Shown in pieces: positions 24,024 through 45,979 of a stretch of 64,000 nucleotides of DNA (position 1 is the first letter of the stretch; every line of letters starts with the position of its first letter). The DNA lies in contig OZ260077.1 in NCBI GenBank assembly GCA_965284385.1, forward strand, positions 288,329 to 352,328. The letters run 5' to 3'. Source of the DNA: Caulobacteraceae bacterium. Its GTDB lineage: Bacteria > Pseudomonadota > Alphaproteobacteria > Caulobacterales > Caulobacteraceae. A program made the position numbers and the translations under genes. Below the pieces are notes generated by a model that did not search any database, had not been told where the DNA came from, and worked only from the letters and a program-made list of their open reading frames with translations.

Positions 24024-25193
24024 TCACCGGTCAAGGCCGAGCAGCCGCGACGTGTGGCGGGCGATCACGCGTTCTTCATCTGTGCGGATCATCCGGACGG
24101 TGACGGGAGCGCCGACCGGGCTCAGGCGTCCAGAACCGCGACGATTGGCGGCCGGGTCGAGTTCGACCCCCAACCAGGCGAGCCGTGCGCAGGTCTCCGC
24201 GCGGATCCGCGGCGAATTCTCGCCGATGCCCGCGGTGAAGACCAGACCGTCGAGACCCTCCAGGCTCCCCGCCAGGGCCGCGACCTCGCGCGCCGCCCGA
24301 TAGACGAACAGATCGACCGCCTCCCGCGCGGCCGGGCTGTCGCTTTCCAGCAAAACCCGCATGTCGCCACTGAGACCCGAGACGCCCAGCAGGCCGGAGC
24401 GCCGATAGAGCAGATCGACCAATCCGGCGGCGTCGAGGCCCCCGGCTTGCTGCAGATAGAGCACCACCCCAGGGTCCAGGCTCCCACAGCGCGTGCCCAT
24501 GACCAGGCCGTCGAGCGGCGTGGCGCCCATGGTGGTGTCGATGCTCCGGCCGTTCCTCAGCGCGCAAAGGCTCGCGCCCGAACCCAGATGGGCCGCAACC
24601 ACGCGTCCCTCAGCCATCGACGGATCGAGCATCGCAAGCTGTCCGGCCACAGACTCGTAGGACAGGCCGTGGAAGCCGTAGCGGCGAAGCCCTCTGGCTT
24701 CCCAGAGCCGGGGCAGACCCAGCCGATCCGCCACGGGGTCGTGACCGCCATGGAAGGCGGTATCGAACGTCAGGACCTGAGGCAGATCGGGACACGCCTT
24801 GCGGAGCGCCCGGACCCCCGCAAGTCCTTGCTGCTGGTGCAGGGGCGCAAGCGGGGCAAGGGCCTCAAGGCTCTCGAGAACGGGGTCGGAGGCGGCGACC
24901 GCCTGGCTGAAGTCGGGGCCGCCGTGGACCACGCGATGTCCGACCGCAGCCACGGGCCCGGCCAGTCGCGCCTCCACCCAACGCAAGAGATCTGACGTCG
25001 CGTCGTCGCCCCCGGCGACCCAGGGCGTTTCGGACAGGACGCCGCCGGCGGCGTCCTGGCTCACGAGCCGTCGACCCGCGCCGTTAGATTCGATCCGGCC
25101 CCTCAACACCGGTGCAAGGTGTCCCCGGGCGGCTTCGAACACGCCGAACTTGACCGTGGAGGAGCCGATGTTGAGGGCGAGGACAGGCGGCAT
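24024..25193 (-). CDS. ackA: Acetate/propionate kinase
   Basis: LALNIGSSTVKF, GHRVVHGG, FDTAFH, RRYGFHGLSY, AHLGSGAS, GTRCG, VFTAGIGENS, RTDEE. Confidence 0.95.
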   Translation of the reverse strand: MPPVLALNIGSSTVKFGVFEAARGHLAPVLRGRIESNGAGRRLVSQDAAGGVLSETPWVAGGDDATSDLLRWVEARLAGPVAAVGHRVVHGGPDFSQAVAASDPVLESLEALAPLAPLHQQQGLAGVRALRKACPDLPQVLTFDTAFHGGHDPVADRLGLPRLWEARGLRRYGFHGLSYESVAGQLAMLDPSMAEGRVVAAHLGSGASLCALRNGRSIDTTMGATPLDGLVMGTRCGSLDPGVVLYLQQAGGLDAAGLVDLLYRRSGLLGVSGLSGDMRVLLESDSPAAREAVDLFVYRAAREVAALAGSLEGLDGLVFTAGIGENSPRIRAETCARLAWLGVELDPAANRRGSGRLSPVGAPVTVRMIRTDEERVIARHTSRLLGLDR

Positions 25194-25390
25194 CCTGGCG
25201 TTGACCTCGGGCTGGCGCACGCCGGGCGTGCTGTTCACGTCCTGACGCAGCCAATCCTCGCCCGTTACAGACCCGACCGCGCCGGCCGCCTCGCCGCCCT
25301 CACCCTCGATCCGGGCGCGGCGTAATACTTTGCCGCCGGCGGCGTCTGACAGGCAGCGATGTTCAGTCTCTCCCGAAAGGATTCAGCCCC

Positions 25391-25630
25391 ATGGCTTCGA
25401 ACCGACCAGGACGCATCCTGAATCTCCTCACCTTCGCAGCCTTCGGCGCAGGGTTGGCCTATCTGCTCATCGGGGAGCATCGTGTTCATCTCCTCGGCTG
25501 GCTGCCGTTCCTCCTGATCCTGCTCTGCCCGCTGCTGCACATGACCATGCACGGCGGTCATGGGCGTGGGCATCGTCAGGGACCGCCGGGCCCTTCGGCC
25601 GCCGATTCCTCCCATCCGCACCAATCCTGA
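25391..25630 (+). CDS. DUF2933 domain protein
   Basis: EHRVHLLGWLPFLLILLCPLLHMTMHGGHG. Confidence 0.8.
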   Translation: MASNRPGRILNLLTFAAFGAGLAYLLIGEHRVHLLGWLPFLLILLCPLLHMTMHGGHGRGHRQGPPGPSAADSSHPHQS

Positions 25631-25641
25631 GCGAGGTTCCC

Positions 25642-26301: not shown

Positions 26302-26508
26302 TATTCCGTTCGGGTCCCGATCTCAAAGCTCCCTACGCCCATTACAGGTCGGCGATTGGCGCCGCCTGCATCCGAAGGGCGCTCACCACACGACCGCAGG
26401 ATTCGTTTCAGCTTTCGCCGGACGGCCTTGCCTCGCTCACAGAGCCAATACGCGCCGCAAAGGACAATCCCTCGGAATATCGGCTGCAAATATTCTTGAT
26501 CTGACCGT

Positions 26509-26522
26509 TTGATCTATCGCAA
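26509..26522. promoter_or_regulatory. FixK/FNR-type box
   Basis: TTGATCTATCGCAA (TTGA-N6-GCAA), centred about 65 nt upstream of the ECF sigma ATG. Confidence 0.65.
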
Positions 26523-26580
26523 TCCCAGCCGACATTTCCGGACCGATCCTGCCTTCATGTTGAAGAGCGGGACTTGTCAG

Positions 26581-27267
26581 ATGAGCCTGAATTGCGCCTC
26601 CATATTGACCGCGGCCGGGACAGCGCGCGCTCCGCTCGGCCTTGTCCCGGCGTCGGCCCGTCCCGAGGACATTCACCAGCTCGTGGAACTCCGGCTTCGA
26701 AAGGGCCGGGCCGGCCATTTGCGTTTCCTCAGGCGACGCCTCCGGTCCCAGGAAGACGCCGAAGACGTTCTGCAGGAGTTCGCCCTGAAGGCCACCCAGG
26801 GTGCAAGACGCGTGACCAACCCCGGCAAGATTGACGCATGGCTCGGCATCGCGCTGCGCAACGCCCTGTTCGACCGCTACAGGCGCAATGCGAGCCGTAC
26901 ACGGCTGAATGAGGCCATGCTGTCGGAGTTTCCTGTACCCGCCGCAGATGATGCGCCCGAGGGTCTGGACCGGGCTTTGCAATGCTTGGCGGGAGCACTG
27001 GACGACCTGGGGCCGGAGACCGCCCAGCTCCTGCGGCGCGCCGAGCTCCAGGAGACGCCTCTGAAGGTGATCGCCCGTGAGATGCAGCTGACCACCAACA
27101 ACATCGGTGTTCGGGTCCACCGCGCCCGGGCGGCGCTGCGGGAACGCATGCAGGCGCGTTGCGGCGCCTGTCCGGAGCCCTGCGCCCTCGCGGCGCGGTG
27201 GAGGCAAGCCGTCGATACGGCGGGTCAGGCCTCGATATCGATCATATCGCCATGCGCCGCCGCATAG
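26581..27267 (+). CDS. ECF sigma-70 factor with Cys-containing C-terminal tail
   Basis: Region 2 (AEDVLQEFALKA...WLGIALRNALFDRYRR) and region 4 (LKVIAREMQLTTNNIGVRVHRARAAL), then CGACPEPC. Start uncertain. Confidence 0.8.
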   Translation: MSLNCASILTAAGTARAPLGLVPASARPEDIHQLVELRLRKGRAGHLRFLRRRLRSQEDAEDVLQEFALKATQGARRVTNPGKIDAWLGIALRNALFDRYRRNASRTRLNEAMLSEFPVPAADDAPEGLDRALQCLAGALDDLGPETAQLLRRAELQETPLKVIAREMQLTTNNIGVRVHRARAALRERMQARCGACPEPCALAARWRQAVDTAGQASISIISPCAAA

Positions 27268-28751
27268 TCGAGCGCATAGGCGAGTTCGCCCGCCGTCTCG
27301 GCGTGCACCGTCAACAATGGCTGGCCCGCTGAGACTTCGGTGCCCAGGCGCACCTGCATCTGGACGCCGGCGGCCTTGCGTTCAGGCGCGCCAGCCAGTT
27401 TGGCGAGCGTAGCGACCTGGCGGTTGTTGATGAGGATGACGCGGCCGGATCGGGTCGCATGGATGGGCGCCCGCTGGGCCGCGACGGGCGGTGTGCGCAT
27501 GCCCCCTTGCGCCTCGCAGATCCGCTCAAATCTTGCCCAGGCGCGACCATCAGCGAGAACAGCCTCGGCCGCTTGGGCGCCCAGACCCGCTTTCGCCACG
27601 CCGGCGAGTTCGAGCGCGGCGCCCGCCAGCAGGCAGGCGCGTTGGCGCAGGTCCTGCGGCGCTTCGGGTCGGTTCTGCAGCACCGCCAGGACATCAAGCG
27701 CTTCCAGCGCCGGGCCGATGCCGACGCCGACCGGCTGCTCCCCGTCGGTCTGAACGCAGAGGGCCTTCAGGTCGAACCGGGCCGCGATCTCGACGAGCCG
27801 TTTCGCCAACTTCGCGGCCGCCTCTCTCGTCCGCACCTTGGCGGTGGAGCCTACGGGAATGTCCAGCACCACATGGGTGGAACCCGCCGCGATCTTCTTG
27901 GACAGAACCGAGGCGATCAGCTGGCCTTCGGTGTCGACGTCGAGGACCCGCTCTACACGGATAAAGATGTCGTCGACCGGGCTGAGCTTCACAGCCCCGC
28001 CCCAGACGACGCAGCCGTTCTCGGCTTCCACCACGCGGCGCATGGCGGGCAGATCGAGATCGACCGGCGCCAGGGTCTCCATGGTGTCGGCCGTGCCGGC
28101 CGGTGAAGTGATGGCCCGCGAGGAGGTCTTGGGCGTGACCAGGCCGCAGGCGGCGAGGATGGCGACGACGATCGGCGTCGTGCGGTTGCCGGGAAGTCCG
28201 CCGATGCAGTGTTTGTCCATGACGATATCCGACGGCCAGCTCAGGCGGTCGCCGACGTCCACCATGGCCCGGGTCAGCGCCCCCGTCTCGGCGTCGTCCA
28301 TCGGCAGCACCGATGTCGCGGTCAGAAAGGCCGCGAGATGGATCGGCGTGTATCGCCCGGCGGCCACGTCCCTGACGACACCCCGGATCGCGGCTTCATC
28401 CAGCCGCGCTCCATAGATCCGGCGGCGAACGCTGGACATGGATTCGATGGCCGGAGCGTGTCGCACGACGACGGGATCGCCCGGCGCCACCGCCAACTGC
28501 CGCCAGGCCTCTTCGGAGAGCGCCGCCTCGTCGAGGCCGAGAACGTCGCCGTCCATCTGGTACAGGGTGGCGTAGACCTCCCGGCCGGCGGCCGAAAGCA
28601 CCACCTGGGAGCGGGACGACAGGCCTTCGGAGCGGCAGACGTGGCAGTCGCGCCGCATCAGCACGATCGACTCGTGCTGGGCGTACAGGCCGAAGCGGCG
28701 CGCTTTGAGGGGCGCCGCCGCATGGGGTGCAGTCTTGACCACTTTGCTCAC
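27225..28751 (-). CDS. Thymidine-phosphorylase family, AMP-phosphorylase-like
   Basis: DKHCIGGLPGNRTT, PKTSSRAITSPAGTADTME, SKKIAAG, plus an N-terminal extension. GTG start overlaps the upstream stop (GTGA). Confidence 0.88.
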   Translation of the reverse strand: MSKVVKTAPHAAAPLKARRFGLYAQHESIVLMRRDCHVCRSEGLSSRSQVVLSAAGREVYATLYQMDGDVLGLDEAALSEEAWRQLAVAPGDPVVVRHAPAIESMSSVRRRIYGARLDEAAIRGVVRDVAAGRYTPIHLAAFLTATSVLPMDDAETGALTRAMVDVGDRLSWPSDIVMDKHCIGGLPGNRTTPIVVAILAACGLVTPKTSSRAITSPAGTADTMETLAPVDLDLPAMRRVVEAENGCVVWGGAVKLSPVDDIFIRVERVLDVDTEGQLIASVLSKKIAAGSTHVVLDIPVGSTAKVRTREAAAKLAKRLVEIAARFDLKALCVQTDGEQPVGVGIGPALEALDVLAVLQNRPEAPQDLRQRACLLAGAALELAGVAKAGLGAQAAEAVLADGRAWARFERICEAQGGMRTPPVAAQRAPIHATRSGRVILINNRQVATLAKLAGAPERKAAGVQMQVRLGTEVSAGQPLLTVHAETAGELAYALDYAAAHGDMIDIEA

Positions 28752-30106
28752 AGCTCGTGCCGCTCCATCATCTGCGGGATGACGCAGTCCCATCCGAGCC
28801 GGTCCTGAATCCGGACCCGCAGGGCGTCCGCCGCATGGGGCTCGCCGTGAACGATGAAGGTCTTGCGCGGCGGTCGCTTGAGGCCGGAAAGCCAGCGCAG
28901 GATTTCCTCGTAGTCGGCGTGGGCCGAGAGCATCGGCAGGTTGGCCACCTCCGCTTTGACCTGAACCCACTGACCGTGGATCTTCACCTCCTTGGCGCCC
29001 TCGACCATCGAACGCCCGCGGGTTCCTGCCGCCTGGAAGCCTGAAAACAGGATGGTGTTGCGCCGGTCCGGGCCGAAGGCCTTGATATGGTGGAGCACCC
29101 GCCCGCCGGTGGCCATGCCGCTGGCCGAAAGGATGACCTTGGGCATGGGGCTGGCGGTGAGTTTCTTGGAGGCGTCCACATCGCGCACATAGGTGGCGAT
29201 GCCGCAGGCGGCGTCGCACACGTCGGCCGGCATGCGGTGGTCCTCCAGGTGCGCGCACAGGAGGTCGGTGGCGTTGATCGCCATGGGGCTGTCCATATAG
29301 ATCGGCGTCAGGCCGATCCGCCCCGCCTGCTTCAGCCGCCAGATGTGGTACAGCAGCGACTGGGCCCGGCCGACGGCGAAGGTGGGAATGACCACGGTCC
29401 CGCCGCGCGCGGTGGTGCGTTCGATGATCTCGCCGAGGGCTTCCGTGGGGTCCTGGGGGTCATGGAGTCGGTCGCCATAGGTCGATTCCACCACCACATA
29501 GTCGGCCTCCGCCACCGGCTCGGGATCGACCATGGTGGCGTCGCCGTAGCGGCCGAGATCACCGGAAAACAGGATGGTCGTCCCGTTCCACGTCACCTCG
29601 GCGGTGGCCGCGCCGAGGATGTGCCCGGCGCGCCGCAGCGTCAGGCTGGCTCCGCCCGGCAGCTGGACCGACGTGTGGAACGGCGTCGGGGCGAACCGCT
29701 CCACCGCGCGTTCGGCGTCGTGCACGCCATAGAGGGGCAAGGCCGGCTTGTGTTTGCCGTAGCCGTAGCGGTTGGCCTGTTCGGCGTCCTTTTCCTGGAT
29801 ATGGCCGCTGTCGCGCAGAATGATCTCCGCGACATCCCGCGTCGCGGCGCTGGCCAGGATGGGCCCGCGAAAACCGTCCTTCACCAGTTTCGGCAGGTAG
29901 CCGGAGTGGTCCAGGTGGGCGTGGGTCAGGACCACCGCGTCGATGCTTGAGGGCTCGATCTGGAGGGGGGCCCAGTTCTGTTCGCGCAGGGTCTTGAGGC
30001 CCTGGAAAAGGCCGCAGTCGATCAGGATGCGGCGGCCATCGGCCTCCAGCAGGTGTTTTGATCCGGTGACGGTGCCGGCGCCGCCGAGGCTGGTGAGACT
30101 GATCAC
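28748..30106 (-). CDS. MBL-fold beta-CASP nuclease (YSH1/RNA-processing type)
   Basis: GGAGTVTGS, DCGLFQG, LTHAHLDHSG, ESTYG, FAVGRAQ, SAHAD. GTG start overlaps the xfp stop. Confidence 0.9.
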   Translation of the reverse strand: MISLTSLGGAGTVTGSKHLLEADGRRILIDCGLFQGLKTLREQNWAPLQIEPSSIDAVVLTHAHLDHSGYLPKLVKDGFRGPILASAATRDVAEIILRDSGHIQEKDAEQANRYGYGKHKPALPLYGVHDAERAVERFAPTPFHTSVQLPGGASLTLRRAGHILGAATAEVTWNGTTILFSGDLGRYGDATMVDPEPVAEADYVVVESTYGDRLHDPQDPTEALGEIIERTTARGGTVVIPTFAVGRAQSLLYHIWRLKQAGRIGLTPIYMDSPMAINATDLLCAHLEDHRMPADVCDAACGIATYVRDVDASKKLTASPMPKVILSASGMATGGRVLHHIKAFGPDRRNTILFSGFQAAGTRGRSMVEGAKEVKIHGQWVQVKAEVANLPMLSAHADYEEILRWLSGLKRPPRKTFIVHGEPHAADALRVRIQDRLGWDCVIPQMMERHEL

Positions 30107-32484
30107 GATGGAGATCCTTCCGGGGGTGAAACTTGCAGGACGCGGGGGTGTGCTTCGCCGCGGACGGCGGCCAGCTCCCCGGGTGTCAGGACATCGGCCG
30201 CGTCGGCGCCGAGGAGGTCCGCACAGGCGACCGCGGCGTGAGCCCAGGTGCAGCGGTTGGCGAACAGCATGCCGGGGGTGTCGAGCGTCCCGCCACGGCT
30301 GAGGTAGCCGAGCGCCCGGGTGCGCTCGGGCCCTCCGTCGAGGCGGCGCAGCAGTCCGAGCATCGGCTCCGGGCGGGTGTGGGTGAGGATCAGACGGGGA
30401 AGGCGTCGGGGAAAGAGCGCTTCCAGCGCCTCGGCCGAGACCACGTGCGCCGCCTCGATCTCGTCCCTCGGGGCCCGGAATCGTCCCGGTTCGAGCAGAG
30501 CCGTGACACAGGCGCGGCGGCCATGATGCGTGAGTCGCGCAGCCGCCGCCAGCGCTTCCCGCGCCTGGTAGGCGCCGACCGCAACGATCTGGATCTCGGC
30601 CCTGTCCAGGTCCCCGGCGATGAGCGCCGCGCCCCGCTCCCAAAGATCCTGGGCCGCGGCCCCGTCGAGCACCTGCGGCAGCGTCCGTTTGGGCGTGATC
30701 AGGCAGGCGACCTCGCCGCGCCGGCCGTAGACCCCGCGGAGCGCGGCGACGGCGCTGTTGGCGTCCAACGGGAACAGCACCCGGGCGGTGTCCGACATCT
30801 CCCCGAGCAGGGCCTCGGCGAGCGTGGGATCCTGGTGCGACTGTTCGTTCTTGCCGTTCTCCCAGGTGTGGGATGTGGCCAGCAGCGGGACGGCGAGCCA
30901 TCCGGGGACCTGGCCGCTCTCGCGCTGATGGCGCGCGAAAATCACCTCCTGGCGCAGGAGACCCAGCATCTTCACCGCAAACGCTTCGTAGCTGACGATG
31001 AGATTGAGCCCGCCCTTGTTGCCGAGCGCGGCGCCGGCCACCGCTTCTTCATTGAGGGCGGTGATCACCGCCCCGTCGATCGCCTCGGGAACGCCGGGTT
31101 CCGGTCGGTTCACCCGGTGGCCAAGCCGGTCGAGCGTACGCCCCATGCCATTGCTGCGAAGCTCGTCGGGATTGCCGAGGCGGACGCGCAGGCCCGGGTT
31201 GGCGTCGACGAATTCCACGAACCAGGCGTCGATCGCCTCCATCGGGGACCTCGCCCTGTCCGACCAGTCCGGAATGGGCCGCTCGGGCGGCGGCGGCGCG
31301 CGCCGCGCGGCCGGATGGCGGCTTTCCAAAGGCCGGCGCTGCAGGTCGTGGGTCGTGAGAACCCCCAGGGCGGCGTCGAGCTCGCTTCCCTGCACGAACA
31401 GCGCCGCCGCCGCGGCGTTGAACGCCGCCCGCGCCCCCTCGTCCGTTCGAGGATCGCCCTCCAGTGGCAGGTTGTGGGCGCGGTTCGTCCCGGCGCCTGG
31501 AAAGCCAAACCCCTTGACCGCCCGCGCGATCACATAGGGCAACGCCGCCGGATAGGCCCGGGCGGGATCCGCTGTGAAGCGCTTCATCCGCTCGTCGGAG
31601 TCGAGAATGGCCCACGCCACGGCGGCTGGATCGTGACCGTCGATCTGGATCGGGTCGAAACCGTTCAGGCGCAGGTGTCGTTCGAGCCAGCCCGCGCCGC
31701 CGTCCTGGGCGATCTCCGTGCGCTCCTCTATGCGCCGCCCGTTGAGGATCATGAGGGGCGTCACCAGGCCGCAGTCTTCCGCCCGCCACCAGCGCGGGGA
31801 CCAGTCGGAGCCACGCTGCTCCTCGAAGGCGCCGTCGCTCAGGAAGGCGACAAGGCTCTCCCCGCGCAGCGGCATGTGGACATATTCGAGCTCGGCGAAG
31901 CCCAGATAGCCGCCCTCCGAGACGGCTCCGGCCGTGTCCGGCCCGGCATGGCTGCCAAGCGGCGCGGCGGGCCGGCCGTCGGCGCCAATGGCGTAGCTGT
32001 AGAAGTCCGAAACGAGCTGGGACAAGCCGGCGTCCGAGCGGCTGTACCGACCCTTTTGCCGGGCAGAGACATCGCCGGTCAGCGCATTGACCGCCTCGAT
32101 CGCAGCGACGCAGTGCCCCTGGCCCATAATCCAGGACCGCGTGACGCCGGACAGGGCGTTCGCCAGCAGATAGCCGACGAAGGCCGGGACCATGTTCAGC
32201 GAGCCGCCGGTATGGCCCTCCGGCAAGTCCTTGAAGGCTTCCGTCGGCAAGGGCGCTCCGGACAGATCCACCCGGCGTGCATAGGTCATGTGCGCCACCA
32301 GCCACATGCCGGCGCTCGCCAGCCGATCGGCGGCGGCCACCAGACGGTAGACCGACTCCTCGTCCGGCCAGACGCCTCGGCGCACGAGACGCTGCGCCAT
32401 GTCCTCGATCCGCGTGACGGTGTCGGCTTGCCGGACCAGAGGCCCATAGCCGGGTTTCCACGTTTCGGCCCAGGTGATCGACAC
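30103..32484 (-). CDS. xfp: Xylulose-5-P/fructose-6-P phosphoketolase
   Basis: GHTGGSLN, MGQGH, FLSDGAFEEQ, ILNG, NPDELRSN, SYEAF, SHTWENGKNEQSHQDP; about 793 aa. Confidence 0.88.
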   Translation of the reverse strand: MSITWAETWKPGYGPLVRQADTVTRIEDMAQRLVRRGVWPDEESVYRLVAAADRLASAGMWLVAHMTYARRVDLSGAPLPTEAFKDLPEGHTGGSLNMVPAFVGYLLANALSGVTRSWIMGQGHCVAAIEAVNALTGDVSARQKGRYSRSDAGLSQLVSDFYSYAIGADGRPAAPLGSHAGPDTAGAVSEGGYLGFAELEYVHMPLRGESLVAFLSDGAFEEQRGSDWSPRWWRAEDCGLVTPLMILNGRRIEERTEIAQDGGAGWLERHLRLNGFDPIQIDGHDPAAVAWAILDSDERMKRFTADPARAYPAALPYVIARAVKGFGFPGAGTNRAHNLPLEGDPRTDEGARAAFNAAAAALFVQGSELDAALGVLTTHDLQRRPLESRHPAARRAPPPPERPIPDWSDRARSPMEAIDAWFVEFVDANPGLRVRLGNPDELRSNGMGRTLDRLGHRVNRPEPGVPEAIDGAVITALNEEAVAGAALGNKGGLNLIVSYEAFAVKMLGLLRQEVIFARHQRESGQVPGWLAVPLLATSHTWENGKNEQSHQDPTLAEALLGEMSDTARVLFPLDANSAVAALRGVYGRRGEVACLITPKRTLPQVLDGAAAQDLWERGAALIAGDLDRAEIQIVAVGAYQAREALAAAARLTHHGRRACVTALLEPGRFRAPRDEIEAAHVVSAEALEALFPRRLPRLILTHTRPEPMLGLLRRLDGGPERTRALGYLSRGGTLDTPGMLFANRCTWAHAAVACADLLGADAADVLTPGELAAVRGEAHPRVLQVSPPEGSPS

Positions 32485-32679: not shown

Positions 32680-33129
32680 TTATGCGCGGGGGCCCATGCG
32701 CCCCGCGTCGGCCCAGGACAGCGCAAGGGCCACCACCCACGGCAGGGTGAAGCCCAACAGCAGCCATCTGAAATCGGAGTTGATGGCGAAGTTGGTGACG
32801 GCCATGCCGCCGATCGATACCAGCCCCGAGACGGCCGCGATCATCGTCGCGCCGCGCCGGCCAGACCGGAAAGTCGTCATCGCGACATGGACGGTCAGCA
32901 GACCGGTGGCGAGCATATAGCCCCCGAGCACGCCGAAGACGCGCCGGAGCCACGGGGCCAGCCGGGGCAGGATGTCCTGGATCTGCGCCACGGTGGATCC
33001 CATGTATCTGGCGTCTTCAGGCAGCAGCGCCGGTCGCATGAAGACGAAGTAGAGTCCCAGGCCGATGAGGATCAGTCCCCCCACGGCGAGAGCGCCCGCC
33101 GCGAGAGACCGCAACCTCACCCCGGTCAT
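32680..33129 (-). CDS. Hypothetical membrane protein
   Basis: Four hydrophobic segments; ATGA-type overlap with the upstream gene. Confidence 0.65.
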   Translation of the reverse strand: MTGVRLRSLAAGALAVGGLILIGLGLYFVFMRPALLPEDARYMGSTVAQIQDILPRLAPWLRRVFGVLGGYMLATGLLTVHVAMTTFRSGRRGATMIAAVSGLVSIGGMAVTNFAINSDFRWLLLGFTLPWVVALALSWADAGRMGPRA

Positions 33130-33620: not shown

Positions 33621-33699
33621 CTCAAATCCTCCAGGCGGCAAGCGACGTTGGACGGCGACAGCAGAGTGCGCGGGAGCTCCGCCGTGCCGCCCTCAACAG

Positions 33700-34227: not shown

Positions 34228-34291
34228 GGGGGTGGATCCTTTGGATCTAGTCACCAGCCAACCGGACGTGACGTCCAGACCGCGGCGACTG

Positions 34292-36747: not shown

Positions 36748-36841
36748 GGACGGCCTCGATGAACGCGGTCGGTCCATCGCGCTACCCCACGAAGACAGGG
36801 CGACAACCGGACCTCCGTGCCGCGAAGGGCGGTGCGTTGTT

Positions 36842-39274: not shown

Positions 39275-39361
39275 GGCTGCTTTCTGACTGGTGACGGGAC
39301 GTCCGAAGGACACCCCGCTCGATTGTCTTCGCCCTCTCTGACGGCGACGACCCGGCTCTCG

Positions 39362-40447
39362 TTACAAATCTATCTCGGGCAGCGGCGACTCCGACGTCCA
39401 GACCCGCTTCCCGGCGAACAGGTCGTTGTCGATCCCCATGGCCAGATCCGTCGCGGCGATCGACCGGCGGCCCGACGTCTCGCGTCCGTCGAGCGCCCTT
39501 ATGGCGTCGATGGTTTCCGGCACGACGATCGCCTGATTGTCGACCATATAGGCGTAGAAGAGTTCATCGCCCTGCACCGTGAGCATGTCGGCCCAAAGCG
39601 CCACCTCATAGAGGTCGCTGCGGGATCGGCCCCGATCCGCCATCAGCTCCTTGACGGCATTGAGGGCATCCAGACCATACTCGTCCTTCATCAGCAGGAT
39701 GCGTGACGAGGATCGGAAGGCGTCGAGCACTTCCTCCTTGGCCGCCGGTCGGGTCATCTGGACCGACCAGTAGTGCAGGTGGGCGATGGTCTCCGGCACC
39801 TTGACCGCCATGGTCACCACATCGAGGTCCGGATCGACGGTTTGGGCGTCGGGACCCTGGTGACTGGGGATTTCGGGCTCCGGGACGAGGGTGTTCATGA
39901 TGCCGCCCTGGTGGCTTTCCCACGGATCGGTCGCGCGTCGAAGCAGGGTGCCCCGGGCCCGTAGAAGCAGACCGGCGCGCTTGAGAGCGCCCAATGTCCG
40001 TACCGTCGCGGTCGTATTGCAGGAGACCACCCGGGTCGCCTGGCGGCCGACAGCCGTCTCGTAATTGGCCTCCGCGACGAAAGAGTGTCCCGTGACGGCG
40101 TGCTTCTCTCCCCCCTGAAGGATGAACTTCAGGCCCCGGGCTCGGTAGAGGGGAACGTTGTCCGCCGCCACGTGCTTGGGCGTGCAGTCAATGATGACAT
40201 CGACCTCGCCCAACAGATCGTCCAGCTGACCGGCCGTTTGGCGTCCCGCGGCCCGGAGTTCGTCAAATGCCTTGGGCGTGGCGGCAAAGAGCGGCACGCC
40301 CTTGGTCTGAAGGACCCGGGTGCGCCAGTCCGTCGCGACGTCGGCGACGCCGATCAGGGTCATGTCCTTCTGAGCCTTGACCGCATCGGCGACGCGTTTG
40401 CCGATGACGCCATATCCGTTCACGGCGACCCGTATTGGTTTGATCAT
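39362..40447 (-). CDS. gap: Type II (archaeal-type) glyceraldehyde-3-phosphate dehydrogenase
   Basis: VAVNGYGVIGKRVADAV, DCTP, QGGEK, VVSCNTT, RRATDP, PSHQGPD. Confidence 0.9.
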   Translation of the reverse strand: MIKPIRVAVNGYGVIGKRVADAVKAQKDMTLIGVADVATDWRTRVLQTKGVPLFAATPKAFDELRAAGRQTAGQLDDLLGEVDVIIDCTPKHVAADNVPLYRARGLKFILQGGEKHAVTGHSFVAEANYETAVGRQATRVVSCNTTATVRTLGALKRAGLLLRARGTLLRRATDPWESHQGGIMNTLVPEPEIPSHQGPDAQTVDPDLDVVTMAVKVPETIAHLHYWSVQMTRPAAKEEVLDAFRSSSRILLMKDEYGLDALNAVKELMADRGRSRSDLYEVALWADMLTVQGDELFYAYMVDNQAIVVPETIDAIRALDGRETSGRRSIAATDLAMGIDNDLFAGKRVWTSESPLPEIDL

Positions 40448-40498: not shown

Positions 40499-40512
40499 TT
40501 GATCCGGATCAA
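40499..40512. promoter_or_regulatory. Perfect FNR box
   Basis: TTGAT-CCGG-ATCAA between the divergent gap and pgmB genes. Confidence 0.85.
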
Positions 40513-40613
40513 AGTTCGGCGCGCCGGCGCATGTCACTCTGGGTCGATGGCGGATGAACCGGAAGCCCGACACGAATGACCGCAAAAGCCGCATCGTGGG
40601 CGGATCGCAGCGA

Positions 40614-41312
40614 ATGCTGACTGCGGGCATCTTCGACGTGGATGGGGTCCTGCTCGCATCGCCTCACGAGCGAGCGTGGCGCGACGCGCTCGACGGCTTC
40701 GCTGAACGGGAGCGCTTCACGACGGCGATGTACCAGTCCCAGGTCGCGGGCAAGCCCCGTCTCGACGGAGCCCGTTCCGCCCTTGAGGCCCTGGGCGTGC
40801 GAGATGCCCAGGGTCGCGCGGCCGCCTACGCCCAACGAAAACAGGCCCGGCTGGAGATGCTGATCCAGACCGGCGCGGTCGCAGCCTACCCGGACGCCCT
40901 GCGTTTCGTCGAGGCGGTCGCTGCTCTCGGCTGGCCGATGGCGGTCGCTTCATCCTCCAGAAACGCCACCGACATGATGCGATCGGTCATCCTCAGCACC
41001 GGCCAGAGCCTGCTCGACATCTTCCGCGTCAATGTTTCCGGCCGCGATCTGAAGCACGGCAAGCCGGATCCGGAGCTTTTCCTGATCGCGGCCGCCGAAC
41101 TGGGTGTTTCGCCGGCGCAGTGCTTCGTGGCCGAGGACGCACCTGTGGGTGTTCAGGCCGCTCGCGCCGGCGGGATGGCGGCGCTCGGCGTCGCCCGGCT
41201 GGGCGACGCTGCCCAACTGCGCGAGGCCGGCGCGGATCTGGTGGTCACCAACCTCGACGAGGTTGCGATCATAGATCTTGCGGACGGACGACTCCGTGGA
41301 CGGACACCATGA
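40614..41312 (+). CDS. pgmB: HAD-family beta-phosphoglucomutase-like phosphatase/mutase
   Basis: IFDVDGVL, ASSS, GKPDPELF, AEDAPVGV. Overlaps the GH65 start. Confidence 0.8.
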   Translation: MLTAGIFDVDGVLLASPHERAWRDALDGFAERERFTTAMYQSQVAGKPRLDGARSALEALGVRDAQGRAAAYAQRKQARLEMLIQTGAVAAYPDALRFVEAVAALGWPMAVASSSRNATDMMRSVILSTGQSLLDIFRVNVSGRDLKHGKPDPELFLIAAAELGVSPAQCFVAEDAPVGVQAARAGGMAALGVARLGDAAQLREAGADLVVTNLDEVAIIDLADGRLRGRTP

Positions 41313-43621
41313 CGAACCCCCGGACCATGAAACAGGCGCTGGAGCCGTCGGCGGATGCCGCCTGGGTCCTGAACGACGATGGCTGCGATCCGCTCCGCGA
41401 GAGCGATCGCGAAACCCGCTTCACGGTCAGCAACGGTTTTCTCGGGGCCCGGGCCTCCCACGCCGTCAATCGATCGTTCCGGCGCCTCGTTTCGCCGAAC
41501 TCCTATGTCGCCGGGCTGTTCGATACGCCAGACACGGACCGGCCAGTGCCGGAAAGGGTCTTCGCGCCAGACTGGTTGGACGTCCGCATCGGCCTGGCGG
41601 GAGGACCGCTCGTCCATCACTTCGGGCAAGGGCCGTCACACCCACTGACGCTCGACATGCGGCGCGGCCTGGCGCTCGCCGAATGTCGCCTGGTGGAAGG
41701 AACAGCCGTGAGCGTCCGACTGGGTCTCCTGCGCTTCGTCTCGCAGAGCCGGCGGTCGCTCGGCCTGCAGTTGCTGCATCTGGAGGTCGATCAGGGCGAG
41801 ACTGACATCACACTGGAAGCTTCCTTCGAAGGCGGCGATCACGACCTCATTTCCGAGCGCCTCGAGACCGAATTCGGCCTGTGGCGCACTCATCGCTCCG
41901 GCAAACGTCTCGCCATGGCGGCAGCCGTGGCCTTGCGGATCGACGGTCAGCATCTGCCGCCGACGGCGCTCGCCCCGCTCAAATGGTCGTGGACCTGGCC
42001 AGCCCACCCGGGGCAAGTCGTCTGTCTCGAGCGCATCGTGGCGGTGGCGCGAAGCGACGGTCCCGATCAGGACCCTGGCGCGATTGTCCGGAATGACCTT
42101 TCGGACGCCCGACGGTCAGGCTGGCGAAGCGTGATGGAGCAACACGAAACGGCATGGGCAAATCGTTGGTCGTGCAGCGACGTCGGGGTAGAAGGCGACG
42201 CCGCGGCGCAGAAGGCGCTACGGTTCGCGGTCTACCACCTGAACAGCGCCGCCAACCCGGACGACCCGCGGGTCTCGATCGGAGCCCGGGCCCTGACCGG
42301 CGCCGACTATCGCGGGCACGTGTTCTGGGACACCGAAATCTTCCTGCTGCCCTTCTATATCCTGACCTGGCCCGAGGCGGCCCGGTCCTTGCTGATGTAC
42401 CGCTTCCATACCCTGGACGGCGCGAGAGCGAAGGCGGCCGAGAGGGGCTGGCGGGGCGCCTTCTACGCCTGGGAGTCCACCGACACCGGGCTGGAAGCGA
42501 CACCGGAGCAGGCCGTCGGTCCGGACCGGCAGATCATCGACATCCTCACCGGCGCCCAGGAGCAACACATCAGCGCCGACGTCGCCTATGCCGTCTGGCA
42601 ATACTGGCAAACGACGGGCGACGACGAATTCCTGGTCGCGGCCGGCGCGGAAATCCTTCTCGAAACCGGACGCTTCTGGGCCAGTCGGGCCCAACCCGAG
42701 GCGGACGGCTTGCACCACATCCGCGGCGTCATCGGCCCGGATGAGTATCACGAGAATATCGACGACAACGCCTTCACCAACGTCATGGCGCGCTGGAACA
42801 TCCGGCGCGCACTTGAGGTCGCGGCCATGCTGCGCGAGCAGTGGCCCGCACAATGGACCGCCCTCTCCCGCCGCCTCGACCTGAACGAGTCCGAACTCGA
42901 ATACTGGACCGGCGTCGCGGAGACGATGGCGACCGGCCTGGATTCGGGCACGGGCCTGTTCGAGCAGTTCACGGGCTATTTCAATCTCGAGGACGTGGAC
43001 TTGTCGGCCTACGCGGGTCGCACTGTCCCGATGGACGTGGTCCTCGGACGCGAACGCACGCAGCAGTCCCAAGTGATCAAACAGGCCGATGTCGTGGCTC
43101 TGCTGGCCCTGCTGCCTGAGGAATTCGCGGGCGCCGCCGGCAAGAAAAACTTCGATTACTACGAACCACGGTGCGGTCACGGCAGTTCACTGAGTACCGC
43201 CTTGCACGGGCTCGTCGCCGCACGCCTAGGCGATGTCGAGATGGCCCTGGACTATTTCCACAGGACGGCGGCGATCGATCTCGCCGACACCAAGGTGGCG
43301 ATCGGCGGCGGCATTCACATCGCGGCCCAAGGCGGCCTCTGGATGATGTCGGTCTTTGGGTTCGCCGGACTGTCGTTGCGGAGCGACGGCCTCGCCTTTG
43401 CGCCGCACTTGCCCGCAAGTTGGTCCAGCCTGAGCTTCAGCGTCCAGTGGCGAGGGCGACGCCTGAGCGTCAGGGTAGACCAGGTCAATCAGCAACTCGA
43501 AGCCTCCCTGGAAGTCGGCGAACCGATGATCCTGATCGTCGGTGGCCGACCATACCCGCTCGCTTCCGAGGCCCCCCTTATCCTCCACCTCGAGTCGCCT
43601 CCGCCTTTATCAGGTAACTGA
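41309..43621 (+). CDS. Glycoside hydrolase family 65 phosphorylase (trehalose/kojibiose/maltose type)
   Basis: NGFLGAR, GHVFWDTE, EQHISADVA, GPDEYHE..DDNAFTN, KQADV, HGSSLS. Confidence 0.92.
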   Translation: MTNPRTMKQALEPSADAAWVLNDDGCDPLRESDRETRFTVSNGFLGARASHAVNRSFRRLVSPNSYVAGLFDTPDTDRPVPERVFAPDWLDVRIGLAGGPLVHHFGQGPSHPLTLDMRRGLALAECRLVEGTAVSVRLGLLRFVSQSRRSLGLQLLHLEVDQGETDITLEASFEGGDHDLISERLETEFGLWRTHRSGKRLAMAAAVALRIDGQHLPPTALAPLKWSWTWPAHPGQVVCLERIVAVARSDGPDQDPGAIVRNDLSDARRSGWRSVMEQHETAWANRWSCSDVGVEGDAAAQKALRFAVYHLNSAANPDDPRVSIGARALTGADYRGHVFWDTEIFLLPFYILTWPEAARSLLMYRFHTLDGARAKAAERGWRGAFYAWESTDTGLEATPEQAVGPDRQIIDILTGAQEQHISADVAYAVWQYWQTTGDDEFLVAAGAEILLETGRFWASRAQPEADGLHHIRGVIGPDEYHENIDDNAFTNVMARWNIRRALEVAAMLREQWPAQWTALSRRLDLNESELEYWTGVAETMATGLDSGTGLFEQFTGYFNLEDVDLSAYAGRTVPMDVVLGRERTQQSQVIKQADVVALLALLPEEFAGAAGKKNFDYYEPRCGHGSSLSTALHGLVAARLGDVEMALDYFHRTAAIDLADTKVAIGGGIHIAAQGGLWMMSVFGFAGLSLRSDGLAFAPHLPASWSSLSFSVQWRGRRLSVRVDQVNQQLEASLEVGEPMILIVGGRPYPLASEAPLILHLESPPPLSGN

Positions 43622-43925
43622 CGGTCAGCATTGTCTTAGCCGAGGTCGACGCAACGGGTAGGCGTGCGGCCGCCTCCCTTGAGGTCACGCCTCACACCGG
43701 CTTAACTTGCTCAGGACGACCATAGCCAATTCCTCGTCGGCGGCGACGACGCCCGCGGCGCGCGCTAGATGTTATTCAGGCGCGTAACGCGCGTTCTACT
43801 CAGTTGCGCTCATTTGCGTTGGCTTTTGACACTGCGCCGACAGGCGTGGCGAGCGGCTCATTGTCGAGCGTCACTGGACATCACTTTCGTTTCGCTGCAA
43901 GCGTCGCGTTGCGGGGCGAAAACAG

Positions 43926-44972
43926 ATGAAACGCAGCGACCGCGTAACCCCGGACCAGAAGCGGCCTCCGGCAGAGTTCCCCTTCGGCGAAGATTTTCAA
44001 ACCATCTTGTCCTTGATCGGGGATGGCGTGGTCAGCACCGACCAGGATGGTCGCATTATTCTGTTCAACCGAGCGGCCGAAGACATTTTTGGCTACACGA
44101 TGAACGAAGTGCTTGGCTATTCAATCGATACTCTCATTCCAACGCGTTTTCATGACCACCATCGCGAAGACGTCAAGCGCTTCTGTTCGTCAGACGCCCC
44201 GTTGCGCCGATCCATGGGGGCCGGCCGCGAAGTCCTCGGACGACGAAAGGACGGTCGGGAACTGGCCATCGAGGCGACGCTCTCTCGGCAAATGATCGGG
44301 GGCCAACACATCGTCACGGCCGTGGTCCGTGATGTCAGTGACCGGAAAACTGTGGAAAGGCAGGGTCAGGTCGTCGCGAACGAGGTCGCTCATCGCCTGC
44401 GGAACACTATGGCGGTCGTCGATTCGATCGTGACGCTCACCGCCCGAACGGCGCCGTCTGTCGCCGAATTCAAAGAGGCGCTGTTGGGGCGTTTCGCGGC
44501 CATATCGCGCACGAACGATTCCCTTATTCGCGGCTCATGGACCGAGGCCAGCGTTCGCCTTCTCCTTGAAACAGAGCTGGCCCCTTACCAGGACAGCGAG
44601 GGAAAGATCACCCTCACAGGACCGGATATCAGTATCGATGGGCAGGTCGCCGTGGCATTGGCGCTTGTCCTCCACGAACTGGCGACAAATGCGGCCAAGT
44701 ATGGCGCGCTTTCAACGTCAGCCGGGCTGCTGCGCGTGGATTGGCAAGTGTCGGCGGACGCAATCCCTCTGATTGAACTCCTCTGGGAGGAACGGGGCGG
44801 GCCCACGGTTGTCGCACCGACGCGCCGGGGATTTGGAAGCGAACTTATCGCTCGCAGCCTTGGCCCCCATGGCGGTAAAGCCGCCTCGACCTATGCACCG
44901 CAGGGCGTCAACTGCCTCATCAGGCTGCCGTTCCGTAGCGTCAGCCGACCAGCGGACAATCCTGTTCAATGA
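43926..44972 (+). CDS. PAS-domain HWE-family sensor histidine kinase
   Basis: PAS (FNRAAEDIFGY...GRRKDG), H-box EVAHRLRN, ELATNAAKYG, WEERGGP...RGFGS. Confidence 0.9.
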   Translation: MKRSDRVTPDQKRPPAEFPFGEDFQTILSLIGDGVVSTDQDGRIILFNRAAEDIFGYTMNEVLGYSIDTLIPTRFHDHHREDVKRFCSSDAPLRRSMGAGREVLGRRKDGRELAIEATLSRQMIGGQHIVTAVVRDVSDRKTVERQGQVVANEVAHRLRNTMAVVDSIVTLTARTAPSVAEFKEALLGRFAAISRTNDSLIRGSWTEASVRLLLETELAPYQDSEGKITLTGPDISIDGQVAVALALVLHELATNAAKYGALSTSAGLLRVDWQVSADAIPLIELLWEERGGPTVVAPTRRGFGSELIARSLGPHGGKAASTYAPQGVNCLIRLPFRSVSRPADNPVQ

Positions 44973-45040
44973 CTGCAACTCCGGCCCCTCGGCGGAGCCG
45001 ATGACTTTTGCCGGCGGCGGCGCCTGGCGAGGTCAGGATG

Positions 45041-45979
45041 TCAGCCGGCCAGGTCCATACTCGCGAGAGCTTGCTGCAAAGCCTTTGCGGATGCACCCAG
45101 CATTGTGTTCTCCGCGGGGGACAGCGCCGGCAGCAAAATCCTCTCGACCCCGCCGGCCCCGAGGATGCACGGAAGGCTGAGGCATACATCGGCGAAGCCG
45201 TATTGTCCGGTCAACAGCGTCGACACCGGCAGCACCGCCCGCTCATCGCGCAGTATGACCTCGCATATCCGCACAATCGCGGTCGCGACGCCGAAGGACG
45301 TGTAGCCCTTTCCCTGGACGATACGGTAGCCGGCGTCGCGCACTTCCGTGGCGATCTGGTCCTGGTCGAGTTCCTGTCCCGAAGGACAGAAATCGCTTAG
45401 CGGCAGCCCTCCGACCAGGACCGTAGAGAATGCGGCCACCTCGGTATCGCCATGCTCACCCAGAACGACCCCATCAATGGACCCGGCCGCGACCCTCAGG
45501 CTCTCGGCGAGGGCTTGTTTGAGACGGCTGGAATCGAGCAATGTGCCCGTGCCGATGACCCTCGCTGCGGACAAGCCTGAGCGCCGCAGCGCCACCAGCG
45601 TCATCAAATCCACCGGGTTGGCGGCGACAAGGATGATCCCCGTGAAACCGGCCTGGACCAGTTCTCCGACGCAGGTCGAGACGATCATGGCGCTTTGCGA
45701 CGCGACCGACAGGCGACTTTCCGCGCCGTGCGTCGCTGCTCCGGCGGTGATAACGGCGATCCGGGCTGTCGCCGCATCGGCGTAGCTTCCCGCCCAGATG
45801 CGCGCGGGTCTGGCAAGGGCGTTCGCATCGGAGAGGTCGGCGGCTTCGGCCTCGGCGAGCCCGGCGTCACTGTCGATCAGGACGATCTCGCGGACCAACG
45901 CGCGAAGCATCAGCGCATAGGCGGCCGTCGATCCGACGTGGCCTGCACCGACGATCACAATCCGGTCGTGTGCGATCAT
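45041..45979 (-). CDS. ldh: L-lactate dehydrogenase family
   Basis: IVGAGHVG, ANPVD, GTLLDSSR, GEHGD, KGYTSFG. Confidence 0.88.
   Translation of the reverse strand: MIAHDRIVIVGAGHVGSTAAYALMLRALVREIVLIDSDAGLAEAEAADLSDANALARPARIWAGSYADAATARIAVITAGAATHGAESRLSVASQSAMIVSTCVGELVQAGFTGIILVAANPVDLMTLVALRRSGLSAARVIGTGTLLDSSRLKQALAESLRVAAGSIDGVVLGEHGDTEVAAFSTVLVGGLPLSDFCPSGQELDQDQIATEVRDAGYRIVQGKGYTSFGVATAIVRICEVILRDERAVLPVSTLLTGQYGFADVCLSLPCILGAGGVERILLPALSPAENTMLGASAKALQQALASMDLAG

Follow-up and report, generated by a model that had tools for sequence, protein, structure and literature searches.

Loci and regulons that support aerobic bacteria at low oxygen have been described in Burkholderia cenocepacia, Bradyrhizobium diazoefficiens and Pseudomonas aeruginosa. 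Here we compare these systems with a gene island found in a 64,000-nucleotide stretch of DNA (the window) from a Caulobacteraceae bacterium (assembly GCA_965284385.1, contig OZ260077.1, positions 288,329 to 352,328). The region appears to have been brought into a Brevundimonas chromosome as part of the cargo that a conjugative element carries, and to constitute a mosaic stress island. Its carbon-metabolism genes lie between positions 24024 and 45979 and encode an alpha-glucoside phosphorylase of family GH65, a beta-phosphoglucomutase (bPGM), a type II GAPDH, a divergent phosphoketolase-family protein (termed XfpL), AckA and an LDH-family enzyme. We conclude that the island is a mobile, mix-and-match variant of the low-oxygen survival loci and regulons known in aerobes, and not a fixed new pathway. 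Its genes probably let the host make ATP without respiration from stored sugar, and perhaps from RNA. The more specific proposal is that FNR/FixK controls the carbon genes as a set that would supply ATP at the substrate level once respiration fails. Its flux directions and substrates are inferred, and in our judgement it has about an even chance of being correct. How strict aerobes survive without oxygen is a long-standing question for groundwater, sediments, biofilters and biofilms.

B. cenocepacia's lxa locus is a gene cluster that low oxygen activates in this obligate aerobe, and its deletion lowers anoxic survival (PMC3721108). It encodes AckA, Pta/Ptb, a metal-dependent RNase, Anr-like regulators, a cytochrome c and a cation ATPase, is associated with a TGA-N6-TCA motif, and was described together with pentose turnover and RNase induction (PMC3721108). 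Like lxa, the window island is clustered, horizontally variable and marked by Anr/FNR-type motifs, and the two have in common AckA, a beta-CASP-type RNase, a CRP/Anr regulator, a cytochrome c and a cation ATPase. However, six universal stress proteins, Hsp20, polyhydroxyalkanoate synthesis, Pta/Ptb, alcohol dehydrogenases and a class II ribonucleotide reductase are found in lxa and not in the window, where no scanned open reading frame (ORF) has a universal stress protein domain. Conversely, the lxa list has no counterpart to the GH65-bPGM pair, type II GAPDH, LDH or phosphoketolase. A further difference is the location of the window island on a conjugative element.

The part of the B. diazoefficiens FixK2 regulon table considered here (PMC9104804) includes an operon for a phosphoketolase-family protein and AckA, an operon running from a thymidine-phosphorylase-family gene to a metallo-beta-lactamase (MBL) gene, an operon for a PNPOx protein and a cytochrome c, the gene for oleate hydratase (a direct FixK2 target) and ppsA. 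The product annotations of bll2518-bll2517, bll3117-bll3115, blr4240-blr4241 and blr1289 match those of window genes, a likeness judged by product names. In the same rows, these genes carry a TTGA-N6-TCAA or GCAA box and show a 7- to 83-fold dependence on FixK2 at 0.5% O2. Unlike the window genes, they form scattered chromosomal operons and not one mobile island, and the rows considered contain no GH65, type II GAPDH or LDH.

In P. aeruginosa, PA3613 (annotated as a phosphoketolase) and PA3614 (MBL superfamily) are listed as induced by low O2 (PMC8575079), and the two adjoin each other as a phosphoketolase/MBL pair does in the window. Accounts of Anr-dependent pyruvate fermentation in this species (ldhA, ackA-pta), in the portions considered here, describe a respirer that survives anoxia through lactate and acetate production with ATP from AckA. 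In contrast to the scheme proposed below, that route begins at pyruvate and involves Pta, and a PA3613 mutant has no virulence phenotype. The phosphoketolase pathway of lactic acid bacteria and the bifid shunt of Bifidobacterium rely on a thiamine diphosphate-dependent Xfp fold whose His, Glu, Tyr and Asn set is common to XfpL. They also convert acetyl-phosphate to ATP by AckA without Pta and carry glyceraldehyde 3-phosphate (GAP) to lactate, and in lactic acid bacteria GH65 and bPGM give glucose 6-phosphate at no ATP cost, all as proposed here. The window differs in its respiring aerobe host, the lack of an ethanol branch, FNR control and a likely role in survival and not in growth. We found no literature linking at least four of phosphoketolase, thymidine phosphorylase, acetate kinase, hypoxia and universal stress protein.

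Genes were called with guidance from GC content at third codon positions (GC3) together with Pfam and NCBIfam scans. Scores are given as NCBIfam bits against the curated cut-off, and the Pfam scan covered all window ORFs with coding-like GC3. For comparison, 80 loci, 47 of them full length, formed a set centred on type II GAPDH, for which 585 relatives were found, and a second set comprised 48 loci of at least 8 kb centred on GH65. An earlier reading of the window from its letters (the original prediction) had proposed a portable, heterolactic-like fermentation kit of six genes. All six are present in 24024-45979, whose outer limits are the ends of the AckA and LDH ORFs:

24024-25238, minus strand: AckA, acetate/propionate kinase (Pfam Acetate_kinase, E 1e-96; TIGR00016, 318 against 293).
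30103-32484, minus strand: XfpL, a divergent phosphoketolase-family protein of 793 amino acids (Pfam XFP and XFP_N).
39362-40447, minus strand: type II (archaeal-type) phosphorylating GAPDH (NF003251, 441 against 185).
40554-41312, plus strand: beta-phosphoglucomutase-like HAD hydrolase, with an alternative start at 40614 (DxDG motif FDVDGV).
41309-43621, plus strand: GH65 alpha-glucoside phosphorylase, kojibiose-phosphorylase-like (best PDB match 3WIQ, E 9e-127).
45041-45979, minus strand: L-LDH-family 2-hydroxyacid dehydrogenase (TIGR01771, 324 against 304).

The bPGM stop codon overlaps the GH65 start codon in ATGA (41309-41312), which makes the two genes translationally coupled, as first described, and AckA was also recognized correctly. 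The GAPDH is present but belongs to the archaeal type II. The protein originally called Xfp is a member of the XFP/XFP_N family that keeps the catalytic residues but is not a canonical phosphoketolase (118 bits against 962), and the LDH belongs to its family with a qualification concerning specificity that is given below. Other elements of the original description held as well. No scanned ORF in the window matches the Pta/Ptb family, an absence that is expected because a phosphoketolase yields acetyl-phosphate directly. No sugar porter is present in the stretch; the only protein of the major facilitator superfamily (MFS) was considered as a sugar importer and rejected because it is Tet/DHA-like.

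The GAPDH has the features of the type II enzymes, including a catalytic cysteine motif, SCNTT, that is invariant among homologues. Its identity of ~70% or more (68% at the lowest) across Alpha-, Beta- and Gammaproteobacteria, Acidobacteriota (Vicinamibacterales) and Gemmatimonadota indicates that this gene, which has seldom been studied in bacteria, has spread horizontally, widely and recently. The LDH-family enzyme is best matched in the PDB by the Thermus L-LDH 2E37 (E 4e-70) and retains the catalytic motifs ESRL, LDSSRL and GEHGD, which contain the classical Arg109, Asp168, Arg171 and His195.

The link to oxygen limitation comes from a regulator gene and a set of boxes among the carbon genes and to their right:

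40499-40512: perfect FNR/FixK box TTGATCCGGATCAA, in the divergent promoter region between GAPDH and bPGM-GH65.
46017-46520, minus strand: PNPOx-like flavoprotein (PNPOx2), first gene of the PNPOx-LDH operon.
46573-46586: FNR box TTGATCTGGCTCAA, with its centre 59 bp upstream of PNPOx2-LDH.
46583-47359, minus strand: FnrN/FnrL-type CRP-FNR regulator (C-x2-C-x7-C plus a central Cys; E--SR recognition helix).
47392-47405: FNR box TTGACGTGAATCAA, between fnr and a 142-amino-acid ORF.
48052-48459, minus strand: lipoprotein cytochrome c (CAACH).
48493-48506: perfect FNR box, ~40-50 bp upstream of the likely cytochrome c start.

The regulator has the predicted features of a four-cysteine FNR-type oxygen sensor, with C27-x2-C30-x7-C38, C126 and the recognition helix ETVSR. 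With at most one mismatch allowed, the window contains four TTGAT-N4-ATCAA boxes where 0.46 are expected, and none of 100 shuffles reached four. For TTGA-N6-TCAA, 0.15 are expected against the four boxes, and no shuffle had more than one. All four are located at promoter positions within 40.5-48.5 kb. Conservation of the boxes is also evident: TTGATCCGGATCAA is retained ~58 bp upstream of GAPDH in the related loci L007-L014 and recurs in Burkholderiales and Marinobacter, and an FNR box precedes GAPDH in 14 of 78 loci (background 0.016 per 280 bp), bPGM in eight of 13 and the cytochrome c gene in all five relatives. Taken with the FixK2 or Anr dependence of similarly annotated genes, these features support the connection to hypoxia that had been proposed. 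Ten co-directional genes separated by short gaps run from GAPDH to an AMP-phosphorylase-like gene, and transcription from the FNR-boxed GAPDH promoter might therefore read through into the XfpL operon. Scans for promoter and terminator consensus sequences in the window gave no enrichment over shuffles.

A further box is associated with an extracytoplasmic function (ECF) sigma factor gene:

26509-27267, plus strand: ECF sigma factor, with a likely start at Met17 or Met25.

The FixK-like box TTGATCTATCGCAA (26509-26522) is located upstream of its likely start and taken alone is at chance level; a relaxed search of the window for TTGA-N6-GCAA gave one match, the number expected by chance. The homologous sigma factor gene on a plasmid of Phenylobacterium zucineum has a perfect box 72 bp upstream. 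The window protein has a cysteine-rich tail (CGACPEPC), and its gene converges on the AMP-phosphorylase-like gene with a 43-nt overlap of the 3' ends.

Solved phosphoketolases match XfpL at E 1e-20 to 1e-29 with ~20-25% identity, it has no XFP_C match in Pfam, and the canonical Xfp of an acidobacterial locus (L044) scores 1500 bits on the same NCBIfam model. A profile alignment to the Bifidobacterium Xfp (3AHC) was read against a published list of active-site residues (PMC10547157). In this alignment, ten of 13 positions are identical (H91, H124, H179, H337, H550, E479, Y499, N546, S444 and G192, corresponding to His64, His97, His142, His320, His553, Glu479, Tyr501, Asn549, Ser440 and Gly155 of Xfp), and K599 corresponds to Lys605. 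The ten residues and the Lys605 equivalent are invariant in 12 homologues. It is plausible that XfpL carries out phosphoketolase-type chemistry, possibly on a different sugar phosphate. Its relatives number more than 3000 proteins, with ~70% identity across Alphaproteobacteria, and are annotated as 'xylulose 5-phosphate 3-epimerase' or 'phosphoketolase family protein'. If the scheme proposed here is true, it would provide functions for thousands of proteins that carry such annotations.

XfpL is usually tied to three other genes, two of which adjoin it in the window:

28748-30106, minus strand: beta-CASP metallo-beta-lactamase RNase (Pfam Beta-Casp, RMMBL and Lactamase_B).
27225-28742, minus strand: archaeal-type nucleotide (AMP) phosphorylase-like protein (NF003338, 656 against 434).
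55689-56624, minus strand: Prs-like ribose-phosphate diphosphokinase (NF005537, 433 against 322).

The beta-CASP start overlaps the XfpL stop in GTGA, and the phosphorylase-like gene begins with a GTG codon 5 nt past the beta-CASP stop. The best PDB match of the beta-CASP protein is the RNase TTHA0252 (E 2e-78). The phosphorylase-like protein falls below the cut-off of the TIGR03327 AMP_phos model (467 against 535), and its best PDB match is 4GA5 (E 2e-95), which we take to be the Thermococcus AMP phosphorylase; thymidine phosphorylases match at ~1e-39. Elsewhere, the Prs-like, XfpL, beta-CASP and phosphorylase genes are closely packed in one operon that is widely conserved, and from which the Prs-like gene is detached here. 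This usual association suggests that nucleotides or RNA would provide a second feed. The archaeal AMP phosphorylase/pentose bisphosphate pathway follows the same logic of salvaging nucleotide ribose for energy, and its phosphorylase is the closest structural counterpart of the long-form thymidine-phosphorylase-family protein in the window. However, the window has no ribose-1,5-bisphosphate isomerase or RuBisCO, and the partners are instead a phosphoketolase-like protein, a beta-CASP RNase and a Prs-like protein.

Such partners raise the possibility that the island holds two independent modules that have only the island and the regulator in common. One (XfpL, beta-CASP, AMP-phosphorylase-like, Prs-like and AckA) would convert RNA or nucleotide ribose to acetyl-phosphate, and a separate homolactic route (GH65, bPGM, type II GAPDH and LDH) would lead from a glucoside to lactate, such that GH65 would not feed the phosphoketolase here. 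This is consistent with the conservation of the XfpL operon without GH65, with its GTGA overlap and 5-nt gap, and with structural matches to an archaeal AMP phosphorylase and an RNase. Also, the boxes flank the GH65, GAPDH and LDH genes and not XfpL or AckA, the pentose turnover and RNase induction in lxa find a parallel, and conversion of pentose phosphate to acetate and lactate is redox-balanced. In a Burkholderiales locus (L022), GH65 is moreover found with PfkB, pyruvate kinase and LDH and no phosphoketolase in range. Nevertheless, we regard the two-module arrangement as somewhat unlikely, given that the Brevundimonas XfpL operon is co-directional behind the FNR-boxed GAPDH and that neither a ribose-1,5-bisphosphate isomerase nor another link from the product of an AMP phosphorylase to a ketose phosphate was seen. 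In addition, homologous GH65-bPGM pairs adjoin a canonical phosphoketolase in 14 of the 48 GH65-centred loci, and the link is thus real in relatives.

This last association bears directly on the proposal that GH65 and bPGM supply a phosphoketolase and AckA, a functional link that the original prediction had included and that the neighbourhoods favour. The bPGM gene precedes GH65 in 43 of the 48 loci. One locus (L089) combines GH65-bPGM and a canonical Xfp with FBA, TIM, PPK2 and AckA, and another (L091) combines them with Zwf and Gnd. Among the type II GAPDH loci, 12 of the 47 full-length examples contain GH65-bPGM, and recurrent companions of the GAPDH are GH65, LDH, pyruvate kinase, AckA and Xfp. 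L044 has a canonical Xfp, AckA and an MFS gene divergent from type II GAPDH, and in L022 a perfect FNR box precedes a series of genes for GAPDH, a bPGM::GH65 fusion, PfkB, pyruvate kinase, LDH and PpsA. The link between GH65-bPGM and phosphoketolase is recurrent, and by gene order XfpL takes the place that canonical Xfp holds elsewhere. The two products of a phosphoketolase are the substrates of AckA and GAPDH, whose genes recur around it. The alphaproteobacterial locus L091 (14325-18705 of that locus) contains GH65-bPGM, canonical Xfp, Zwf, Gnd and two sucrose-6-phosphate-phosphatase-like HAD genes, which amounts to a near-complete upper heterolactic branch beside sucrose-type synthesis genes.

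The GH65 protein is predicted to be a true phosphorylase and not a hydrolase, because the catalytic acid (E479) and the full phosphate site (R327, Y334, S626, S627 and H670) are kept. This agrees with the earlier expectation that it is not purely hydrolytic. These residues align with E483, K330, Y337, S631, S632 and H675 of the kojibiose phosphorylase CsKP (PDB 3WIQ/3WIR) and are invariant in eight homologues. The window enzyme also has K591/Q592 and W388, E389 and T414, matching K596/Q597 and W391/E392/T417 of CsKP, and in both proteins loops 3 and 7 are long, loop 11 is short and the partner gene is bPGM (PMC11442529). The loops align with those of CsKP without gaps except for one residue. 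The two proteins differ in that the kojibiose motif TPK reads TPE in the window and that the N-domain match is weak; Thr414 is Cys in most close relatives. Trehalose, the substrate originally suggested, was rejected on loop lengths, since trehalose phosphorylases have short loops 3, 7 and 11 and loops 3 and 7 of the window enzyme have the length of those in CsKP. Trehalose-6-phosphate phosphorylases have the same loop pattern as the window enzyme and kojibiose phosphorylase.

A candidate source of an alternative substrate is encoded to the left of the carbon genes:

15655-17537, plus strand: PlsC-type acyltransferase and a GT4 homologue of the TeGSS alpha-1,2-glucosyltransferase (GT4 at ~16431-17537).

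The GT4 protein aligns over its full length with TeGSS (E 2e-87) and keeps Tyr18 and Arg179. In one related locus (L012), the GT4 gene is directly 3' of bPGM-GH65 on the same strand, and it adjoins GH65 in four of the 48 GH65-centred loci (L093, L099, L102 and L157). Chromosomal orthologues in Brevundimonas and Aquidulcibacter adjoin a GDE/MGH1-like glycoside hydrolase gene. The presence of a putative alpha-1,2 transferase and of a phosphorylase of putative alpha-1,2 type, together with the lack of an importer, is consistent with an internal alpha-1,2-glucoside, which we consider a likelier GH65 substrate than trehalose from these sequence features. The idea of an internal substrate is therefore kept and its identity revised. 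The stop codon of the acyltransferase gene (15655-16434) seems to overlap the likely ATG of GT4 (16431-17537), suggesting that expression of the two is coupled and that the glucoside product might be acylated.

In the proposed scheme, low O2 would cause the four-cysteine FNR, and presumably also a host FixK, to bind the TTGAT-N4-ATCAA boxes and turn on type II GAPDH with its trailing gene string, bPGM-GH65, PNPOx-LDH and the cytochrome c gene. The TeGSS-like glucosyltransferase would probably make an internal alpha-1,2-glucoside that GH65 could phosphorolyse to beta-glucose 1-phosphate without spending ATP, and bPGM would convert this product to glucose 6-phosphate. XfpL might then split a ketose phosphate, of the fructose 6-phosphate or xylulose 5-phosphate type, to acetyl-phosphate and either GAP or erythrose 4-phosphate. 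AckA would form ATP and acetate from acetyl-phosphate without Pta, type II GAPDH together with housekeeping lower glycolysis would yield further ATP, and the LDH-family enzyme would re-oxidise NADH. A likely second feed would involve the beta-CASP RNase and the AMP-phosphorylase-like and Prs-like proteins, which may supply pentose phosphate from RNA or nucleotides.

The stoichiometry constrains the route. Oxidation of hexose through Zwf and Gnd to acetate and lactate leaves an excess of 2 NAD(P)H that requires residual respiration or another sink, and the heterolactic-like conversion of hexose to acetate plus lactate in the original prediction fails on this point. In addition, Pfam scans found none of the classical heterolactic genes Zwf, Gnd, Rpe, Pta and AdhE in the window. 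A bifid shunt converts two hexose phosphates to three acetate and two lactate with ~3.5 ATP each, cleavage of a pentose phosphate gives acetate and lactate with ~3 ATP, and both are balanced. Acetate plus lactate is thus redox-balanced only by the bifid-shunt or pentose-phosphate route, and the pentose route fits the beta-CASP RNase, AMP-phosphorylase-like and Prs-like genes, which are usually in the XfpL operon. Overall, the interpretation in the original prediction is partly supported, and the observation on which it was built is confirmed.

The island joins families that respond to low O2 in transcriptomic data and are biochemically unstudied, namely a divergent phosphoketolase, a bacterial type II GAPDH and the AMP-phosphorylase/beta-CASP pair, into one testable scheme of substrate-level ATP synthesis. 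It also offers a candidate fuel, the alpha-1,2-glucoside from the TeGSS-like transferase, and a capacity that travels on conjugative elements as interchangeable cassettes. A more far-reaching version would have the island serve as a self-contained conjugative anoxic battery for obligate aerobes. Here, FNR would mobilise an alpha-1,2-glucoside and rRNA into a trunk of acetyl-phosphate and GAP, the trunk enzyme would represent a hitherto uncharacterised phosphoketolase clade, ~3-3.5 ATP per sugar phosphate would be gained, and nothing but acetate and lactate would be produced. We consider this version unlikely. If true, alpha-1,2-glucosides would be a type of energy reserve for hypoxia that is new for bacteria.

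A number of observations weigh against a common role of these genes in substrate-level ATP synthesis. XfpL misses every curated phosphoketolase cut-off, its pocket has the changes Gln321 to Asn, Gln546 to Asn and His548 to Lys, such that its substrate may differ, and SDG replaces the GDG motif (the Asn of LNG is kept). The bPGM scores are below the cut-offs of both TIGR02009 (128 against 153) and TIGR01990 (95 against 189). In the LDH-family enzyme, a Thr occupies the Gln102 specificity position, and pyruvate specificity is accordingly putative. With respect to regulation, no FNR box with at most two mismatches is located upstream of XfpL or of AckA (a 92-bp gap), these genes have no box of their own in 16 other loci either, and among GH65-centred metagenome loci an FNR box precedes bPGM in only five of 52. 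Gene content is also inconstant. The closest XfpL loci (L002-L004) have no GH65 within ~4 kb upstream of GAPDH, although an overlapping locus (L014) has GH65-bPGM ~6.5 kb upstream of GAPDH, and Brevundimonas loci with 92-97% identity lack 43531-48043, which includes a kinase gene, LDH, PNPOx2, FNR and the 142-amino-acid ORF. Finally, type II GAPDH is mainly gluconeogenic in archaea.

This archaeal role could mean that carbon flows in the opposite direction. Low O2 would then lead to the building and not the burning of an alpha-1,2-glucoside, which would serve as a sink for carbon or as a protectant, through gluconeogenic type II GAPDH, reverse action of bPGM and GH65, and extension by GT4. PpsA is found with type II GAPDH in three loci and belongs to the FixK2 targets in the regulon rows considered above, GT4 shares an apparent operon with bPGM-GH65 in L012, and cyanobacteria accumulate glucosylsucroses under stress. 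The GH65 reaction itself is reversible (PMC11442529). We judge this direction quite improbable in view of the recurrent neighbours, which include pyruvate kinase, PfkB, LDH, AckA and phosphoketolase. Furthermore, synthesis would spend ATP and reductant when both are scarce, and the bPGM equilibrium and cellular phosphate favour breakdown.

The comparison of loci further indicates that the carbon genes do not travel as a unit. The GAPDH-centred loci draw on a reshuffled pool that contains copper ATPase, ICMT, ECF sigma, cyclopropane fatty acid (CFA) synthase, PPK2 and ATP-grasp-like genes, as well as Prs-like, XfpL, beta-CASP and phosphorylase genes and PfkB, pyruvate kinase, PpsA and LDH. A single conserved operon or kit of six genes was rejected on synteny, given this reshuffling and the cassettes that are missing in close relatives. 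The kit described originally is portable in the sense that the region lies on a conjugative element, but it is not a unit, as the LDH-FNR cassette illustrates. This 4.5-kb cassette (43531-48043) is replaced by ~185 bp in the otherwise colinear L007 and L009, and the junctions show no clear repeats. LDH and FNR adjoin GH65 in two of the 48 GH65-centred loci, and GH65, LDH and FNR are found together in L121. The LDH-FNR pair next to GH65 has identities of 100% and 98% in L092 and of 68% and 66% in the more distant L121.

Such variability could be taken to mean that the grouping is coincidental, and that the region is a cargo island of the ordinary kind, for metal and membrane stress, carrying unrelated metabolic genes with no common role. 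Copper-resistance, membrane-lipid and regulatory genes are indeed scattered among the six carbon-metabolism genes, and genes for a copper ATPase, CopM/DUF305, CusABF, ICMT, CFA synthase and oleate hydratase are interspersed in the island, whose module content varies even among relatives with 92-97% identity and whose entire gene pool is reshuffled across loci. However, coincidence does not readily account for enriched FNR boxes in promoter positions, for the recurrence of the same gene families together across phyla, or for the experimental co-regulation of similarly annotated genes by FixK2 or Anr, as far as the sources considered here describe it. We therefore consider it very unlikely.

The remaining genes support the assignment of the region to a mobile element and illustrate its mosaic composition:

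1-13000, minus strand: conjugative-element backbone with a relaxase-like DUF3363 protein, two single-stranded DNA-binding (SSB) proteins, a strawberry-notch-type methylase/helicase, and ParB-like, Toprim and RadC proteins (domain scans).
22616-24034, minus strand: ATP-grasp-like ORF of 472 amino acids that overlaps the AckA stop and has high GC3.
32680-35587, minus strand: co-directional genes for a 149-amino-acid ORF, a PNPOx-like protein, a DUF305/CopM protein and the Tet/DHA-like MFS transporter, an order kept in L002-L014.
35584-39313, minus strand: alpha/beta hydrolase and copper P-type ATPase, a variable insert (35563-38940 is missing in L007 and L009).
43926-44972, plus strand: PAS-HWE histidine kinase, belonging to the variable cassette.

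Homologues of the backbone genes are found on conjugative plasmids of Caulobacter and Phenylobacterium, and the P. zucineum conjugative plasmid bears related modules. With regard to membership of an integrative and conjugative element, the relaxase-like, SSB, ParB-like, Toprim, RadC and methylase-helicase genes are inside the window, and the type IV secretion system, integrase and ends are outside it. No tRNA gene that might mark an integration site is present in the window. The open-ended ORF at 1-1176 combines its DUF3363 match with a weak MobA/VirD2 relaxase match and is probably the relaxase of the element. GC content drops from 0.70-0.73 to 0.61-0.68 in the cargo, and the nearest type II GAPDH loci are from Brevundimonas. 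Near-identical DNA is present in metagenomes from drinking water, groundwater, sediment, biofilters and mine drainage. Short contigs from a sediment metatranscriptome (95-99% alike) span much of the stretch from the phosphorylase-like gene to GH65, which is weak evidence for expression; depths are unreliable and LDH is essentially uncovered.

The ATP-grasp-like ORF has no Pfam or NCBIfam family match, and homologues with 50-85% identity are located beside AckA or type II GAPDH in 15 of the 47 full-length loci, from Alpha- and Gammaproteobacteria. In L011, the copper ATPase gene of the variable insert is present and the alpha/beta hydrolase gene is absent. A membrane-lipid block at 13535-21235 encodes a YflT-like protein, CFA synthase, the PlsC-type acyltransferase, DUF6629 and DUF5676 proteins and oleate hydratase, and weak FNR-like boxes with two mismatches are located at 18669 and 21862. 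The segment 48856-64000 encodes CusF, CusA, CusB, an outer-membrane factor, the Prs-like protein, an ABC-2/HlyD transporter set and a second heavy-metal P-type ATPase, and the cargo therefore continues beyond the end of the window. The ABC-2/HlyD transporter set is also found beside the module in Agrobacterium and P. zucineum.

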